DNA of 41,476 nt from Bacteroidota bacterium (GTDB lineage: Bacteria > Bacteroidota > Bacteroidia > Bacteroidales > DTGW01), in NCBI GenBank assembly GCA_020049015.1, contig JAIFLP010000101.1:1-41476 (forward strand). The letters are read 5' to 3'. Below the pieces are notes generated by a model. It saw only the letters and a list, made by a program, of their open reading frames with translations. It did no database searches and was not told the DNA's origin. This document shows positions 4,855-10,301 of this stretch, in pieces. Positions within the stretch are counted from its first letter, which is position 1, and every line of letters begins with the position of its first letter. Both the position numbers and the translations under genes were made by a program.

Positions 4855-5286
4855 TTATTTTCCGGCCAGCAAGTCTGCCATATCCATTTTCTCAACTTTA
4901 CTCATGCCACTTATATCATCTAAGGCATGTTGAATTTTGGTTTTGAATTTCCAACAGGTCATTTGCCGCAACGATAGCTGGCGCGCAAATTCATAACTTG
5001 ACGTGGACGATTCTCCTTTGCATACTTGCCAGGCAATATAAAAGGCTTTGTGCATTGGAAATTTACAGTTATGAAATAAGGTATGTGCTGAGGCCGACTC
5101 TTCCGTCTTGCATTTGGTGCAACGACGGGAATAAGGCGATTTACCAGAGCAAGAATTAAGATTCCCACATTTCTTACATTCAAAACCATTTTCCCATTTA
5201 ACTTTAGCTAAAAATGCCAGACAATAATCATCATCCTGAAACAATCTATCCAACTCTTCTTTGCTCAATTCGTTTTTGAAAATCAT
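4855..5286 (-). CDS. Stand-alone IS1595-type zinc-ribbon/HTH protein lacking a DDE catalytic domain; possible regulator
   Basis: 'CLAFLAKVKWENGFECKKCG...RRCTKC...TLFH...KFP...W...SSYEFARQLSLRQMTCWKF' matches the N-terminal Zn-ribbon + HTH of IS1595 transposases. The ORF ends at 143 aa with no DDE domain, and no terminal inverted repeats are visible. Confidence 0.7.
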   Translation of the reverse strand: MIFKNELSKEELDRLFQDDDYCLAFLAKVKWENGFECKKCGNLNSCSGKSPYSRRCTKCKTEESASAHTLFHNCKFPMHKAFYIAWQVCKGESSTSSYEFARQLSLRQMTCWKFKTKIQHALDDISGMSKVEKMDMADLLAGK

Positions 5287-5314: not shown

Positions 5315-5378
5315 AGATATTTTTTAGTGATATTAACATAATTTAAGTGATACTATTGTGATTCAAATAAAAATGTTC

Positions 5379-5386
5379 TATCTTTG
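5379..5386 (+). promoter_or_regulatory. Bacteroidota sigma-A -7 element (TATCTTTG) for the 5402-9515 operon
   Basis: TAnnTTTG 15 nt upstream of the ATG at 5402, with a TTG (-33-like) at 5356-5358. Confidence 0.7.
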
Positions 5387-5401: not shown

Positions 5402-5638
5402 ATGGGAGCTTCTTGTGATGTTAAGAATAAGCCAGTTGGTGTTAAAGAATTATTGAGATCATGGTATTTTTGGAAACCAGTTTTAGGTATCTTTGTAGGC
5501 GCGATTGCTGGTTTTGCATATTATTATTTTGTGGGCTGTAAATCAGGTACTTGTCCGATAAATTCAAACCCATATATAAGCACAGCTTGGGGCGGATTAT
5601 TGGGTTACTTTTTGGTGAGCCCTTGTAAATCGTGTTAA
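5402..5638 (+). CDS. Small two-TM membrane protein, DUF6132-like (GC-SGTCPI-SNP motif)
   Basis: Two hydrophobic Gly-rich helices flank 'VGCKSGTCPINSNP', with a C-terminal CKSC. It is the first gene of the operon. Confidence 0.75.
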   Translation: MGASCDVKNKPVGVKELLRSWYFWKPVLGIFVGAIAGFAYYYFVGCKSGTCPINSNPYISTAWGGLLGYFLVSPCKSC

Positions 5639-5649
5639 ATTGATTTGGT

Positions 5650-6300
5650 ATGATGGTAGAAGAAATAAATAAAAGGTATTCTGGTTTGGCCGAAAGCAAT
5701 TGTTGTCTTTCATGTGGCGGGGCTGTAAATTATGTTGAGGCGCAGAAAGGTGAAGTATGTGTTGATTTGGGTTGCGGTAGAGGCAATGACGTACTGCGTT
5801 TAGCTGAAAAGGTTGGTGACGAAGGCTTTGTATATGGAATTGATATTTCAGATGGAATGATAACTAAGGCTCGTGAAAATGCGGCTAAATTTGATGTGAA
5901 AAACGTTGAATTTATTCAATGCGAACTCGAAAAGCTTACAATACCCCAAGGAAGAGCAAATGTTGTTATTTCAAATTGTGTACTGAATCATGCTTCGAAT
6001 AAACAAAAGGTTTGGCATGAAATTTATAAGGTATTAAAATATGGTGGCAGGTTTATCGTTAGTGATATATACTCAATTGAGCCTGTACCTGCAGAATTCC
6101 GCAACGATCCTTCTGCAGTTGCCGAATGCTGGGCTGGTGCTGTTCCTAAAGAAGAATATTTATTAAATATTCAAAGGGCTGGTTTTATAGATGTTGAAAT
6201 TATTGAAGAATCCCAGCCTTATCAGAAAGGGAAAATCCATGTTGCCAGTTTTACAGTAGCAGGTTTTAAGCCTAAAGGCGTTTGTTGTTGTTCAGTATAA
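5650..6300 (+). CDS. SAM-dependent methyltransferase, arsenite methyltransferase (ArsM)-like
   Basis: Class I motif VDLGCGRG, GIDISDGM, ISNCVLN and ECWAGA (ArsM-type As-binding Cys positions), N-terminal CCLSCG and C-terminal CCC. Confidence 0.75.
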   Translation: MMVEEINKRYSGLAESNCCLSCGGAVNYVEAQKGEVCVDLGCGRGNDVLRLAEKVGDEGFVYGIDISDGMITKARENAAKFDVKNVEFIQCELEKLTIPQGRANVVISNCVLNHASNKQKVWHEIYKVLKYGGRFIVSDIYSIEPVPAEFRNDPSAVAECWAGAVPKEEYLLNIQRAGFIDVEIIEESQPYQKGKIHVASFTVAGFKPKGVCCCSV

Positions 6301-6315
6301 TTAATAATTGTTAAT

Positions 6316-6804
6316 ATGGATAAAAAGGTTTTTTTAGTATTAGTGGCATTTGCCTTTACAGTAACTGCCTGTCAGGCTCGCAGTGAAAAATCTGCTGCTG
6401 AAGAGTCTGCTGTGGTTAAAGAAGAAAACGCCGCTGGTTCTGTAATTTATTTAACTACAGCCCAGTTTAAACAAAAGGTATTCAACTATGATGTAAATAA
6501 GGAATGGAAATATGAAGGTGATTTGCCTTGTATTCTCGATTTTTATGCAGATTGGTGCGGACCTTGCCGAATGATTGCACCTACTTTGGAGCAATTGGCT
6601 AAAGAATATTCCGGTAAAATATATGTTTATAAAATTAATACCGATAAGGAAAAAGAATTAGCCCAGTATTTAGGGATTCAAAGCTTGCCTACCTTAGTAT
6701 TTGTGCCATTGAAAGGGGCTCCTCAGGTTTCAATGGGAGCAATGCCTAAGGAAACATTTGTAAAAACTATTAATGATGTAATGCTAAATAATAACAACAA
6801 ATAA
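6316..6804 (+). CDS. Thioredoxin with lipoprotein signal peptide
   Basis: DFYADWCGPC active site and cis-Pro loop SLPT. The N-terminus MDKKVFLVLVAFAFTVTA-C looks like an SPII signal/lipobox. Confidence 0.88.
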   Translation: MDKKVFLVLVAFAFTVTACQARSEKSAAEESAVVKEENAAGSVIYLTTAQFKQKVFNYDVNKEWKYEGDLPCILDFYADWCGPCRMIAPTLEQLAKEYSGKIYVYKINTDKEKELAQYLGIQSLPTLVFVPLKGAPQVSMGAMPKETFVKTINDVMLNNNNK

Positions 6805-6820
6805 TTTAAATCTAATAATT

Positions 6821-6919
6821 ATGAAAACGTTAATTAAAAAACAAAAGGAAAACCGCAAAGAAAAGGTGGCTCAATGCTGTGCTAAAACATCAAAAACTGT
6901 AGCTGGTTGTCACGACTAG
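6821..6919 (+). CDS. Putative RiPP precursor peptide, 32 aa (MKTLIKKQKENRKEKVAQCCAKTSKTVAGCHD)
   Basis: Read directly from the sequence and absent from the ORF track. ATG at 6821 follows an A/T-rich Bacteroidota-type initiation region, and TAG at 6917-6919 ends 1 nt before the ATG of the rSAM/SPASM gene. It has a Lys-rich leader-like half and a Cys/Thr/Ser core-like half. Confidence 0.8.
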   Translation: MKTLIKKQKENRKEKVAQCCAKTSKTVAGCHD

Positions 6920-6920
6920 T

Positions 6921-8225
6921 ATGTACTTTTCAAGATATAATATATTTTCGAAAGTTAGAGATTCAGATAATTATTTTATTCTGAATCTCCTTTCAGGAAA
7001 TGCAGATATATTAAGTCCTGAGGAAGCTAGTTTAATAAGCAGTAAGCAATACGATAAGTTACCTAAGCTTGTAGAATTGGGTTATTATGTTGATGAACAA
7101 CTGGAAAAAAAGTTGTTCATGAATAAGTATCTCGACTTTATTGATGAACGCGATAAAGATGAAGTTCAATTGTTTTTTGTAACTAATTATTCTTGCAATT
7201 TTGCTTGTTTCTATTGTTATCAGGATGAATATGAGGCCGCTGTTACAAGTCTTACAACCGATGTGATTGATTCATGTTTTGAATACGTAAGAAACAATTT
7301 TGCAGGTAAGAGATGCTATTTTACTATTTTTGGAGGTGAGCCTTTACTTCCTTCTGAAAGTCAAATGTCAGTGATTCAGTACTTTCTTGAGAAAGCTAAA
7401 GTTGCCGGAATAGAAACATGTATTGTTACCAATGGTTATTCTCTTTCTAATTACATCCCTATATTAAAGGATATGATGATAAGAGAAATTCAGGTTACAC
7501 TTGATGGAACTGAAGCCATACATAATGAAAGAAGATATTTAAAAAGCAAAAAAGGAACATTTAACGAAATTGTAAGTGGAATTGATTCTTGCTTGGCTGC
7601 AAAAATTCCTGTGAATCTTAGGATGGTAATTGATAAACTGAATGTTGATAATTTACCTGAATTCTCTGAATTTGCTATCCAGAAAGCATGGACTAAAAAT
7701 CCGCTTTTTAAAACGCAATTGGGTAGAAATTATGAGCTTCATCACTGCCAGTCTTTAAAAGACAAGCTTTTTTCTAGAATAGAAATGTATACGCATATTT
7801 ATCATCTATTACTTCAATATCCTCATATAGCAGAATTCTATAAACCAGCTTTTTCAGTTTCTAAGTTTGTATTTGAACATGGCGATTTACCGGATCCATT
7901 ATTTGATTCGTGCCCCGCATGTAAAACAGAATGGGCTTTTGATTATACCGGAAAGATTTATCCTTGTACAGCTACTGTCGGAAAAAAAGGTGAAGAATTG
8001 GGAAGTTTTTATCCAACAGTTAGCTTGAATCAAGCTAAGGTTGATGATTGGATCTCAAGAGATGTTACTTCTATCAGTGAATGTAAATCATGCGAGTTGC
8101 AATTAGCATGCGGTGGAGGATGCGGCTCTGTTGCTAAAAATAATAAAGGTTCTGTATGCAATTCTGATTGCAGACCAGTAAAAGAATTATTAGAAATGGG
8201 TTTCGCTTATTATTTTAAAGAATAG
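6921..8225 (+). CDS. Radical SAM/SPASM-domain peptide maturase
   Basis: CNFACFYC (CxxxCxxC), FGGEPLL, VTNG and QVTLDG. The SPASM region reads CPAC...GKIYPC...CKSC-x5-C-GGG-C...C-x3-C. An ~80-aa N-terminal extension (SRYN...FILNLLSG) is RRE/PqqD-like. Confidence 0.92.
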   Translation: MYFSRYNIFSKVRDSDNYFILNLLSGNADILSPEEASLISSKQYDKLPKLVELGYYVDEQLEKKLFMNKYLDFIDERDKDEVQLFFVTNYSCNFACFYCYQDEYEAAVTSLTTDVIDSCFEYVRNNFAGKRCYFTIFGGEPLLPSESQMSVIQYFLEKAKVAGIETCIVTNGYSLSNYIPILKDMMIREIQVTLDGTEAIHNERRYLKSKKGTFNEIVSGIDSCLAAKIPVNLRMVIDKLNVDNLPEFSEFAIQKAWTKNPLFKTQLGRNYELHHCQSLKDKLFSRIEMYTHIYHLLLQYPHIAEFYKPAFSVSKFVFEHGDLPDPLFDSCPACKTEWAFDYTGKIYPCTATVGKKGEELGSFYPTVSLNQAKVDDWISRDVTSISECKSCELQLACGGGCGSVAKNNKGSVCNSDCRPVKELLEMGFAYYFKE

Positions 8226-8246
8226 TCAATTATTAAATATTTTTTT

Positions 8247-9515
8247 ATGAAAGAAATCAGTTCTTCCGATTTCGAATTGGAAGTGTTATCTCAAAGTGCT
8301 TGCGTTGTTGATTTTTATTCAACCGAGTGTCCACCATGTGAGGCAGTAGCACCTAAGTTTGAATCCTTACATAATTTATATGGTGAGCATGTTCATTTCG
8401 TTAAAATATTTCGCCAAGGAAATAAAGAATTGGCAACAAAATTAGGTGTTAGTTCATCACCTACTTTATTGTTTTATAAAAATGGAGTTAGAGTGGGTGA
8501 TCAATTAAGTGGAGGGGTTAAAAAGTCTGACATTATTAAAAATCTTGATTTACTTATTACTCCTGATGAAGTTGTGAAAATTAAATCGGGTATGAAGCCA
8601 AGTAATACCTCACACGATGTGGTAATTCTAGGAGCAGGTCCTGCGGCTTTAGCTGCCGGAATTTATCTCGCGCAAGCTAAAACTGATACTTTAATTATTG
8701 ATACTGCATTACCAGGAGGCCAGGTTTCAACTACCCATCAAGTTTCAAATTATCCTGGTTTTGAAGAGCCAATACAAGGATATATGTTAGGACATCACAT
8801 GTCAGAACAAGCAAAAAAAGCTGGGGTGAAGTTTAAAGTTGCAGTTGATGTTAGTCATGTTGATTTAATAAAAAAAGAAATTGTAATTGATGAATTTGAA
8901 ACAATAAAGGCAAAAACAATTATTATTGCAACTGGTGCTTCACCCCGCAAGCTAAATATCCCAGGAGAAAAAGAGTTCAAGGGTAAAGGCTTGTCATATT
9001 GTGCTACCTGCGATGCCAAATATTTTCAAGATAAAGAGGTAATTGTTATAGGCGGTGGTAATTCTGCAGTGGAGGAATCAGATTTTATTGCTCGTTTTGC
9101 TTCCAAAATAACTATGGTACATCAATTTGATACCTTAACTGCAAATAAAGAAGCACAGGAGAAGATCTTGAATAATCCTAAAGTTAAAGTATTATTTCAA
9201 CATGAGCCACGCGCCTTTGCGAAGGAAGGCGATAAGATGGTTGTAACAATTGAAGACTTGTTAACTCACGAAACTAAGAAAATCGCTGCCGATGGAGTGT
9301 TTATTTTTGTTGGGATGTCGCCCAATCTCGATATCTTTAAAGAAGACCTGCAAAAAGACAAATGGGGTTATATTCTAACTGATGAAGACATGCATACTAA
9401 TATTAAAGGTGTGTTTGCTATTGGGGATGTAATCAGTAAAAAGTATCGCCAGATTACTACCGCAGTTGCCGATGGAACCATAGCTTCTATTGTAATTGCT
9501 AAAGAGCTGGGATAA
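8247..9515 (+). CDS. Thioredoxin-thioredoxin reductase fusion (N-terminal Trx CPPC + FAD-dependent TrxR)
   Basis: DFYSTECPPC plus SSPTLLFYKNG, then GAGPA (FAD), SYCATCD (redox disulfide), GGGNSA, T-GVFAIGD and RQITTAVADG. Confidence 0.9.
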   Translation: MKEISSSDFELEVLSQSACVVDFYSTECPPCEAVAPKFESLHNLYGEHVHFVKIFRQGNKELATKLGVSSSPTLLFYKNGVRVGDQLSGGVKKSDIIKNLDLLITPDEVVKIKSGMKPSNTSHDVVILGAGPAALAAGIYLAQAKTDTLIIDTALPGGQVSTTHQVSNYPGFEEPIQGYMLGHHMSEQAKKAGVKFKVAVDVSHVDLIKKEIVIDEFETIKAKTIIIATGASPRKLNIPGEKEFKGKGLSYCATCDAKYFQDKEVIVIGGGNSAVEESDFIARFASKITMVHQFDTLTANKEAQEKILNNPKVKVLFQHEPRAFAKEGDKMVVTIEDLLTHETKKIAADGVFIFVGMSPNLDIFKEDLQKDKWGYILTDEDMHTNIKGVFAIGDVISKKYRQITTAVADGTIASIVIAKELG

Positions 9516-9530
9516 AATAAAGCACTAGAT

Positions 9531-10301
9531 TCAACAATGATAGCGTTTTATTATACTGTTGCTAATTAGCTCGTATATATTCCTTTTATTTTCTTCATCT
9601 GTCAGTAATGATTTATGAAATTCGATTACTTGTAAATCATTTCTTCTGGCAGGGCCTGTTTGAGCTGCATGCGGATCGGTTTCAATTGCTTTTTCAACGG
9701 TTTCTTTGATAAGGGGAGTAAGAATGTTGTAATTGATGCCATTTTTATCGGCCAAATCTTTCCCTAATGTAATCATGTGGTTTACAAAATTGCTACAAAA
9801 TATTGCACAAACATGTAATACTCTTCTTTGATTTGTATCCATATAGTACACATTTTTTGTAATCAGATGTGCGGTGTTTTCAATTATTACTTTCGATGTT
9901 TCGTCGCAAAATTCGATACATGCGGGAATACTCATCCAATTAAGACTTCTAAATTTCGAAAATGATTGAAAAAGGTAAATTACTCCGTAATGTTTAGCGT
10001 ATGGTTTAAAAATGTTAATATCAATACTGCCTGCAGTATGCACTAATACATGTTTGTCCCAATTTCTTTGCTGAATTACATTTTCAATAGCATCATCGTT
10101 TACACATATATATACCAATCCGTCGGGAATGTCATGAATGCTTTTTAATTCAATACAACCTGATTCGTCAGCTAGTTTTTTTGATTTTTGGGGATTCCTG
10201 CCATACAAATATATATTCTGTACATTAGGCAGTGAGCACAAACGTTTAGCCAAATGATGAGCAACATTGCCAGTTCCAATGATAGTGATATTTTTGTCCA
10301 T
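9531..10301 (-). CDS. Rossmann-like/DUF2520 oxidoreductase (PanG-like ketopantoate reductase family)
   Basis: IIGTGNVA Rossmann motif, VNDDAI, HTAGS, H...F.SNFVNH and AQTGPARRND. Confidence 0.82.
   Translation of the reverse strand: MDKNITIIGTGNVAHHLAKRLCSLPNVQNIYLYGRNPQKSKKLADESGCIELKSIHDIPDGLVYICVNDDAIENVIQQRNWDKHVLVHTAGSIDINIFKPYAKHYGVIYLFQSFSKFRSLNWMSIPACIEFCDETSKVIIENTAHLITKNVYYMDTNQRRVLHVCAIFCSNFVNHMITLGKDLADKNGINYNILTPLIKETVEKAIETDPHAAQTGPARRNDLQVIEFHKSLLTDEENKRNIYELISNSIIKRYHC

Follow-up and report, generated by a model that had tools for sequence, protein, structure and literature searches.

A six-gene operon in the 41,476-nt contig JAIFLP010000101.1 (Bacteroidota bacterium, NCBI GenBank assembly GCA_020049015.1; the whole contig is referred to here as the window) encodes a module built around four parts: a small cysteine-rich peptide, a radical S-adenosylmethionine (SAM) (rSAM)/SPASM peptide maturase, a short paralogue of the methyltransferase ArsM, and a thioredoxin fused to a thioredoxin reductase (Trx-TrxR). 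These four are the core of the module, and a small DUF6132-like membrane protein and a lipoprotein-type Trx are optional members. The arrangement was found again in 83 genome loci and in loci of 80 metagenome contigs, which is far beyond chance, and it is very likely that the four core parts are functionally coupled. Its probable task, within anaerobic bacteria, is to deal with sulfur or metalloid compounds that react with thiols. As the best overall explanation, at a probability of roughly one in three (0.35), we favor an accessory module in which a crosslinked carrier peptide would feed an ArsM-type, Trx-recycled methylation.

Linkage of the four core parts

Relatives of the rSAM gene were collected by scanning one genome per species. 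There were 494 matches, of which the best 80 (59–63% identical, nearly all from metagenome-assembled genomes (MAGs) of Bacteroidales type) were used; together with three more distant loci (L084, L085, and L109; 55–61% identity) they make up the 83 genome loci. The 80 metagenome loci were drawn from at least 120 contig stretches that match the back-translated peptide core, with GC contents from 0.28 to 0.74. The linkage counts for the genome loci take in only those with sufficient flanking sequence.

Near the rSAM orthologues, the peptide gene was present in 77/80 loci, the methyltransferase in 67/70, and Trx-TrxR in 68/68 (loci with at least 2.5 kb downstream). A preliminary description of the operon, made from the letters of the window alone, had suggested testing whether methyltransferase, Trx, TrxR, and DUF6132 stay linked to this rSAM clade, and had named rSAM–peptide pairs mostly without the methyltransferase and Trx genes as the observation that would speak against it. 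The neighborhoods show the opposite for methyltransferase and Trx-TrxR. For DUF6132 the linkage holds in 47/64 genome loci (and 16/45 metagenome loci), and the gene is missing from the remainder. The operon genes belong to a conserved and, very probably, functionally coupled unit; the description had to be amended in that DUF6132 and the lipoprotein-type Trx (upstream of the peptide gene in 32/70 loci) are optional, and in that a seventh gene, for a Zn-ribbon protein, and an operator are to be added.

The same parts recur in the metagenome loci. By profile searches, 75/80 of these loci contain at least one of rSAM, methyltransferase, and Trx/TrxR; among the 14 with at least 3 kb upstream and at least 3.5 kb downstream, rSAM was found in 13, methyltransferase and Trx/TrxR in 12 each, and the complete trio in 11. 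Gene order is shuffled in the high-GC loci and the parts are retained. The order is methyltransferase–peptide–Trx–TrxR with the rSAM gene on the opposite strand in L205, rSAM–peptide–Trx–TrxR in L180 (both by profile search), Trx-TrxR–methyltransferase–peptide–rSAM in L137, and TrxR–methyltransferase–peptide in L210. A reading of the high-GC loci as lacking rSAM, derived from tblastn, was rejected: in L205 and L180, profile searches revealed copies that are rearranged or lie on the opposite strand, and the other contigs are too short for a judgment. In L186, L197, L172, L176, L206, L205, and L180 (GC 0.65–0.74), Trx and TrxR lie in different reading frames right after the peptide gene. We read these as two separate genes, which would make them, with the fused form of the window and of all Bacteroidales-type loci, a natural split/fusion pair. 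That the parts are kept together through rearrangement in very different genomes is the strongest evidence of functional coupling.

The gene family is discrete and patchily distributed. In an even phylum sample of 401 genomes, 22 match the rSAM enzyme at E 1e-20 or better and only four, G000 included, do so at orthologue level (at least 55% identity). The next-best matches are 29–30% identical and lie beside other Cys-rich precursors, without the methyltransferase. Two genomes of a 301-genome class sample match, and an rSAM orthologue is absent from all eight sampled genomes of the window's own order. Orthologues of the operon methyltransferase (60–65% identity) occur in exactly the same 4/401 genomes as the rSAM orthologue. 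A methyltransferase 65% identical to that of the operon is also encoded by Williamwhitmania taraxaci.

The peptide and the three enzymes linked to it

Residues A17, Q18, C19, C20, A21, K22, S24, G29, C30, H31, and D32 of the peptide (MKTLIKKQKENRKEKV-AQCCAKTSKTVAGCHD) are invariant in 32/32 aligned sequences. All 77 genome-locus copies end in AQCCAK(T/I)S-x4-GCHD followed directly by the stop, and open with an MKSLIKKK-like start and a Lys-rich linker that varies in length. At a threshold of E 0.001, a profile of the 32 sequences matched 126 clusters (50% identity) among 1.84 billion representative proteins. Members are 30–62 residues long with a single exception, and the match reaches the C-terminus in all except P0334 (134 residues, core in residues 1–31) and the truncated 35-residue P0310; in none of the 126 clusters is the core fused to the end of a larger domain. 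Of 32 divergent peptides read, 28 keep AQCCAK-x-(S/A)-x4-GCHD, those with long Pro/Ala/Arg-rich leaders included. The departures are AQGCAK in P0355, AQCCSK in P0356, GCRD in P0338, and the truncation of P0310, while P0334 has GCQT for GCHD; a few divergent peptides have T, V, or F in place of (S/A).

Leaders span ~14 to 46 residues and the partner enzymes are ~60% identical, and the core barely varies. This combination suggests that the peptide must fit several conserved partners, unlike diversifying antimicrobials, and the near-invariant core looks like that of peptide-derived cofactors. Conservation of all 16 core residues speaks for the peptide functioning as a whole. An extra CC (or CxC) pair is present in the leader, ~9–13 residues before the core CC, in L184, L195, L207, L141, L159, L173, and L198 and in the high-GC group, a hint that more happens to the N-terminal part than mere removal. 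A predicted complex of methyltransferase and peptide, run without controls, gave no verdict (score 0.02, mark 0.32).

Peptide genes with the same core also occur on short contigs on which the three enzymes are all missing (L144, L183, and L194, GC 0.71–0.72, and also L160 and L174). They adjoin TauE/SafE in L144, L183, and L194, with a rhodanese in L144 and L194 and a Pyr_redox_2 protein in L183. In L160 a Trx lies beside the peptide gene.

The CX3CX2C cysteines of the rSAM enzyme (C92, C96, and C99, in CNFACFYC) are invariant in 41/41 aligned sequences. Invariant in the same 41 is the SPASM pattern C334-x9-G344-x4-C349, C388-x2-C391-x5-C397-x3-C401, and C417; the pattern known for two auxiliary clusters is CX9-15GX4C ... 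CX2CX5CX3C ... C. An AlphaFold2 model has a predicted local distance difference test (pLDDT) value of 77.6, with values below 50 at residues 382–417. Such low values in the SPASM cluster-binding part are expected because the clusters are missing from the model. When the model was compared with known structures by Foldseek, the best match was CteB (5WGG/5WHY, E 9e-17, full length; 473 alignment columns on a 440-residue chain), followed by anSME, SuiB, ChlB, and TigE. Residues 7–77 of the model, the putative leader-recognition (RRE-like) part, form three strands and helices. At the sequence level, phmmer against PDB sequences gave no more than three matches, all of them weak (E 5e-05 to 3e-04). 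NCBIfam scores stay below the cut-off of every named maturase (CefB 146.2 against 600, TIGR04463 124.4 against 525, Clo7bot 116.5 against 600, PapB 114.2 against 340, and SCIFF 66.5 against 425), which points to a separate family within the class. The likeness to CteB and the profile neighbors CefB, TIGR04463, Clo7bot, and PapB incline us, somewhat beyond even odds, to the view that the enzyme makes thioethers on the module peptide.

Several features are shared with the SCIFF system (CteA-CteB). The rSAM model is nearest CteB over its full length, N-terminal domain included, and in both cases a short Cys-containing precursor lies beside its maturase with no dedicated exporter or protease. The SCIFF precursor is strongly conserved, as is the module peptide. 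The module differs in the low score of its rSAM enzyme on the SCIFF model, in a core with three Cys where SCIFF has six, and in leaders that are Lys-rich and variable in length. To our knowledge, obligatory linkage to an ArsM paralogue and Trx/TrxR is no feature of SCIFF loci.

The operon methyltransferase is a distinct short paralogue and not an ordinary ArsM in an ars context. Aligned by phmmer with CmArsM (4FR0/4KW7), its C22, C110, and C160 correspond to C72, C174, and C224. The CC at positions 18–19 matches the CC of canonical ArsMs by position (by eye), so that an equivalent of C44 is probably present as well. C18, C19, C22, C110, and C160 are invariant in 64/64 orthologues, and ~53/64 have a C-terminal CxC or CCC tail. 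An operational definition in the accessible part of PMC5552862 takes as ArsM a SAM domain with at least three of four Cys (44, 72, 174, and 224 of CmArsM), and the operon enzyme falls within the definition as given there. Alike to ArsM are thus the class I SAM fold, the C72/C174/C224 equivalents, the N-terminal CC, the Cys-rich C-terminal tail, and the Trx/TrxR partner.

Canonical copies read SSCCG...(~25–30 residues)...GLGCG and have a longer C-terminus, whereas the operon form reads CCLSCGG, with the loop between the CC and GCG cysteines deleted, and ends at ~216 residues with the C-terminal region missing. In the 401-genome sample, the next-best methyltransferases are at most 45% identical and 262–349 residues long. 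Three of the four carrier genomes (G129, G213, and G333) possess a canonical ArsM in addition. Across this phylum sample an ArsR gene lies beside canonical ArsM in 10/15 loci, and several loci further contain ArsC, Acr3, ArsP, or an aquaporin; the module form, in contrast, lies outside ars operons and almost entirely without such neighbors (an ArsR-family or ArsP gene in 2/83 genome loci and 3/80 metagenome loci). The earlier label of an ArsM-like methyltransferase is accurate for the Cys set, which is conserved in 64/64, and needs the addition that this is a distinct paralogue unlinked to arsenic resistance genes. The Cys motifs listed at that time are likewise correct, with the exception of the methyltransferase, which has 11 Cys in all (18, 19, 22, 37, 42, 91, 110, 160, and 212–214). 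In L032 and L201, the methyltransferase/peptide genes are set apart from the rSAM gene by another methyltransferase gene (TehB/BioC-like) and another copy of DUF6132.

The reductase part of Trx-TrxR is, by its sequence, a bona fide low-molecular-weight TrxR. It matches PDB TrxRs at E 3e-72 over residues 122–414 and scores 200.6 bits on Pyr_redox_2 and 328 bits on TIGR01292, just under the cut-off of 343.45. The CPPC motif is present in 63/64 orthologues and CATC in 64/64; the window protein has Ala at 142 and 192, where 62/64 and 61/64 orthologues carry Cys. Trx is the physiological donor for ArsM and ArsC of Methanosarcina acetivorans, according to the accessible part of PMC12685052. Since an ArsM-type cycle needs a Trx-type reductant and plain methyl transfer needs none, a Trx/TrxR partner fits an ArsM-type cycle. 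As for the optional members, the WCGPC Trx is a probable lipoprotein, with an N-terminal signal peptide or hydrophobic stretch ending in Cys visible in its sequence, and the DUF6132-like protein conserves C46 in 46/48, C51 in 45/48, C75 in 45/48, and C78 in 27/48 sequences.

Proposed chemistry and competing explanations

In the scheme we favor, the rSAM enzyme would crosslink the peptide core intramolecularly through at least one thioether. The peptide, uncleaved and unexported, would then serve as a dedicated thiol carrier inside the cell and present a thiophilic atom to the ArsM-like enzyme. Methylation would follow the ArsM cycle, in which a methyl group passes to a thiolate-held lone-pair atom and reduction then occurs at the expense of a Cys–Cys disulfide, and Trx-TrxR would re-reduce the methyltransferase and/or the peptide with NADPH. 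The trigger would be thiol-reactive sulfur or metalloid stress and not a classical ArsR-controlled arsenic response. Carrier and ArsM-type methylation together, as one complete scheme, are put forward tentatively. For the atom itself we give about equal odds to sulfane sulfur or selenium, which the genomic context suggests, and to As(III)/Sb(III), which the ancestry of the enzyme suggests. A more far-reaching form is on the unlikely side: here the peptide would be an rSAM-crosslinked thiol cofactor with an obligate ArsM-type partner, an anaerobic stand-in for glutathione-like carriers. It would take up sulfane sulfur, selenium, or a metalloid, which would leave again after methylation, and a Trx/TrxR of the module's own would close the cycle. 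In the boldest version, the rSAM enzyme would form a carbon–heteroatom bond to bound As or Se and so yield a peptide-bound organo-metalloid.

A peptide with this role would have parallels among known cofactors. Pyrroloquinoline quinone (PQQ; PqqA/PqqE) and mycofactocin (MftA/MftC) are peptide cofactors made by rSAM/SPASM enzymes, and their genes cluster with those of redox enzymes, not with export genes. The module shares with them the near-constant C-terminal core of a small peptide, the rSAM/SPASM enzyme, and the clustering with redox genes. It differs in having no recurring peptidase or further tailoring enzymes among the annotated clusters and no stand-alone PqqD-like chaperone, and in conserving all 16 core residues, not two.

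The absence of export and processing genes bears on a first alternative, an ordinary pathway for a ribosomally synthesized and post-translationally modified peptide (RiPP). In such a pathway the ArsM-like enzyme would S-, O-, or N-methylate the crosslinked peptide, Trx-TrxR would keep Cys reduced for the rSAM enzyme, and the product would be a signaling or antimicrobial ranthipeptide with generic release. Methyltransferases are common tailoring enzymes of RiPP clusters. The peptide gene directly adjoins the rSAM gene and either the methyltransferase or the Trx gene, and the rSAM model is CteB-like. A link to the envelope is hinted at by the lipoprotein-type Trx and by the membrane protein DUF6132, both of them optional. 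Around the 80 genome loci, 39 flanking protein clusters were annotated (ranks 4–39 and three smaller), and they include no ABC exporter and, except for an HtrA-like protease cluster in 3/80 loci, no peptidase. The window has no transporter or immunity gene between 4,855 and 9,515, and the earlier observation that the unit lacks an exporter and a protease extends in this way to its relatives. A core that is near-constant from GC 0.28 to 0.74 is also unlike that of antimicrobials, and simple peptide methylation would leave unexplained both the retention of the ArsM Cys and the constant presence of Trx/TrxR. We regard this pathway as rather unlikely.

Arsenic is the second alternative. The module would then be a dedicated arsenic/antimony system, with the peptide binding As(III)/Sb(III) through three thiols as a chaperone in the manner of ArsD, and with a true arsenite methyltransferase, recycled by Trx-TrxR, that serves detoxification or makes toxic methylarsenite. 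The ArsD site consists of Cys12/13/18, and the module peptide supplies CC plus C. Three Cys with which CmArsM binds As(III) have aligned, invariant counterparts in the operon enzyme, which also keeps the CC motif. The enzyme falls within the operational definition of ArsM (accessible part of PMC5552862), and in M. acetivorans a Trx serves ArsM as donor (accessible part of PMC12685052). The genomic context, on the other hand, is not that of arsenic resistance. We found acr3 and arsC in 0/83 genome loci and 0/80 metagenome loci, ArsR-family and ArsP genes are as rare as given above, and canonical ArsM, which lies beside ArsR in 10/15 loci, is already present in three of the four carrier genomes of the sample. 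In the genome of the window itself (87% complete), arsR, arsC (thioredoxin type), and acr3 lie next to rho on another contig (C181; L110 1100–2901), unlinked to the operon; neither ArsB nor a second ArsM-like gene was found in this genome. The need for an rSAM enzyme would also be unexplained. A dedicated arsenic system is improbable, and the context led us to reject a classical ars operon.

What does recur around the module is a set of sulfur and thiol genes. At least one of DUF302, YgaP-like transmembrane (TM) protein, rhodanese, CoADR-rhodanese, YeeE, TauE, and Pyr_redox_2 was found by tblastn in 65/83 genome loci and 26/80 metagenome loci. With acr3 and arsC absent, these neighbors point to sulfur and thiol chemistry and not to arsenic resistance. 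Loci for sulfide and persulfide (cst/BigR/YgaVP) are alike in that rhodanese, TauE, CoA-persulfide reductase, and YeeE families are the module's neighbors and also flank the orphan peptide genes. They are different in regulation, the putative module regulator being a Zn-ribbon protein and not an ArsR/CsoR-type sensor, and we know of no rSAM enzyme, ribosomal peptide, or ArsM-like enzyme in them.

A number of observations weigh against the carrier scheme or against the coupling on which it builds. The methyltransferase scores 193.6 bits on the ArsM subfamily NF008823, whose cut-off is 263, and its match begins only at model position 58 of 272, so that it is without the ~57 N-terminal model positions and also without the C-terminal domain. 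Conversion of all three core Cys to thioethers would leave no thiol for carrying. None of the sulfur-linked neighbor families occurs in the window itself, and DUF302, YgaP-TM, rhodanese, TauE, and YeeE are sulfur-trafficking markers by our assumption, made from family names and general knowledge. The best 80 of the 494 rSAM relatives are close kin, and the metagenome loci were chosen by the exact core motif, which makes core variants invisible in them. Finally, some loci hold only part of the module: L014, L019, and L046 keep rSAM and Trx-TrxR with the peptide and an intact methyltransferase missing, L131 is missing the methyltransferase, L152 has methyltransferase and peptide only, and L164 has peptide and rSAM only.

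Partial loci such as L152, L164, L014, and L019 are what one would expect from a third alternative, in which the genes are co-regulated and mechanistically independent, and a ranthipeptide pair shares its locus with a methyltransferase for small molecules and a spare Trx system only because all answer one stress signal. The changing assortment of thiol and sulfur genes at the edges of the loci fits this as well. It is less easily reconciled with the identical distribution of the methyltransferase paralogue and the rSAM enzyme in the 401-genome sample, with the adjacency of the four parts through rearrangements across very different GC contents, or with the position of Trx directly after the peptide wherever the rSAM gene has moved. 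Independent stress genes are a poor bet, and the coupled carrier module is the reading we retain.

The gene cassette is apparently undescribed. A full-text literature search, with thin coverage of subscription journals, found no published description of the module or of the peptide motif, in line with the earlier suggestion that this may be an undescribed system. One report on other Bacteroidales RiPP clusters makes no mention of thioredoxin or arsenic in its accessible text (PMC10352776). Should the coupling be real, some of what is counted as "arsM" in peat, sediments, and anoxic soils would come from a paralogue with another job, which matters for surveys of arsenic cycling. There would then be a conserved intracellular rSAM-modified peptide with named partners, an ArsM-type enzyme and a Trx system, where a "housekeeping" function of ranthipeptides has been an open question. 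The module may also reveal an anaerobic, oxygen-independent route that detoxifies or volatilizes reactive sulfur, selenium, or metalloids, and its putative single-target Zn-ribbon regulator and operator would offer a simple reporter for the inducing signal.

Proposed regulator, locus layout, and neighboring genes

Upstream of the operon lies a divergent gene for a Cys-rich Zn-ribbon protein. It is syntenic, with products 56–66% identical, in 29/63 loci with sufficient flank. The protein is similar to the N-terminal part of an IS1595 transposase: its NCBIfam match covers only model positions 1–56 of transpos_IS1595, and there is no DDE catalytic domain. C22, C37, C40, C46, C56, C59, C89, and C111 are invariant in 31/31 sequences, and four of these lie beyond the ribbon. 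Stand-alone Zn-ribbon proteins of 138–150 residues form atlas clusters of 84–269 members, mostly from Bacteroidota. A dead IS1595 remnant was considered for this reading frame and rejected in view of the 29/63 syntenic loci, the eight invariant Cys, and the conserved operator opposite.

The operator-like repeats share the motif GTGATA-N7-RATTYA in a 20-nt register. Two matches occur in the window against 0.07 expected, a number reached in 0/100 shuffles, and the tandem is the sole match in its own 2.37-Mb genome at two or fewer mismatches (control 0). The paired motif accompanies 25/30 loci with the Zn-ribbon gene and 3/50 without it; single copies lie just 5' of the first operon gene in nine further loci without the Zn-ribbon gene. 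In the aligned intergenic regions of 31 loci, a TAnnTTTG box, which we take to be the −7 promoter element of Bacteroidota, stands 3' of the operator. We propose that the Zn-ribbon protein is a dedicated regulator that binds the tandem operator and controls a one-operon regulon; it is possibly thiol-sensing. A short IS1595-type Zn-ribbon/helix-turn-helix protein without transposase domain appears to have been recruited as a regulator. Contig L053, labeled as an uncultured Hyphomicrobiales MAG, carries a Bacteroidales-type operon with the Zn-ribbon gene, possibly through a binning error.

The layout of the operon is exactly as first described, with six co-oriented genes downstream of TAnnTTTG, and the family assignments of the six genes hold in Pfam and NCBIfam (Table 1). 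The base composition of the operon region shows no anomaly, and no intrinsic terminator was found past 9,515. A sigma-70 promoter scan gave 23 sites against 24.4 expected, which is uninformative for such a type of organism. A terminator-like hairpin at 6,902–6,920 was rejected as an attenuator (z-score 0.01; 91/200 shuffles fold equally).

Table 1 Features of the operon region and gene families recurring around related loci
Feature	Position	Strand	Remarks
Zn-ribbon protein gene (putative regulator)	4855–5286	−	143 aa, Cys-rich; divergent, bounds the operon upstream; Pfam Zn_ribbon_IS1595 31.3 bits
Operator-like tandem repeats, GTGATA-N7-RATTYA	5327–5345, 5347–5365	+	overlap the −33 region of the promoter
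Predicted promoter TATCTTTG, TAnnTTTG	5379–5386	+	15 nt 5' of the ATG at 5402
Operon, six co-oriented genes	5402–9515	+	from the list of open reading frames; intergenic gaps 11, 15, 16, 1, and 21 nt
DUF6132-like small membrane protein	5402–5638	+	78 aa; CxxxxC and C-terminal CxxC; optional; Pfam 23.9 bits, cut-off 23.2
Short ArsM-paralogue SAM methyltransferase	5650–6300	+	216 aa; core; Methyltransf_31 122 bits
Lipoprotein-type thioredoxin, WCGPC	6316–6804	+	162 aa; optional; TIGR01068 102.7 bits, above cut-off
Precursor or carrier peptide	6821–6919	+	32 aa; core; no Pfam or NCBIfam family
rSAM/SPASM peptide maturase	6921–8225	+	434 aa; putative N-terminal leader-recognition-like domain; core; Pfam Radical_SAM 61.4 bits
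Thioredoxin (CPPC) fused to low-molecular-weight thioredoxin reductase (CATC)	8247–9515	+	422 aa; core
Convergent open reading frame	9531–10301	−	bounds the operon downstream
Recurrent neighbor DUF302			44/80 genome loci
Recurrent neighbor YgaP-like TM protein			28/80 genome loci
Recurrent neighbor DUF1847			20/80 genome loci
Recurrent neighbor Crp regulator			19/80 genome loci
Recurrent neighbor DUF134			17/80 genome loci
Recurrent neighbor OsmC			17/80 genome loci
Recurrent neighbor NifX-like			16/80 genome loci
Recurrent neighbor second methyltransferase (TehB/BioC-like)			14/80 genome loci
Recurrent neighbor ferredoxin-like			14/80 genome loci
Recurrent neighbor Pyr_redox_2			14/80 genome loci
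Recurrent neighbor rhodanese			9/80 genome loci
CoADR-rhodanese; YeeE; TauE with DUF1634			few loci each

Among the recurrent neighbors, the gene for the DUF1847 protein, which has no NCBIfam name, is inserted between the rSAM and Trx-TrxR genes where it occurs (for example at 7245–7796 of L024).

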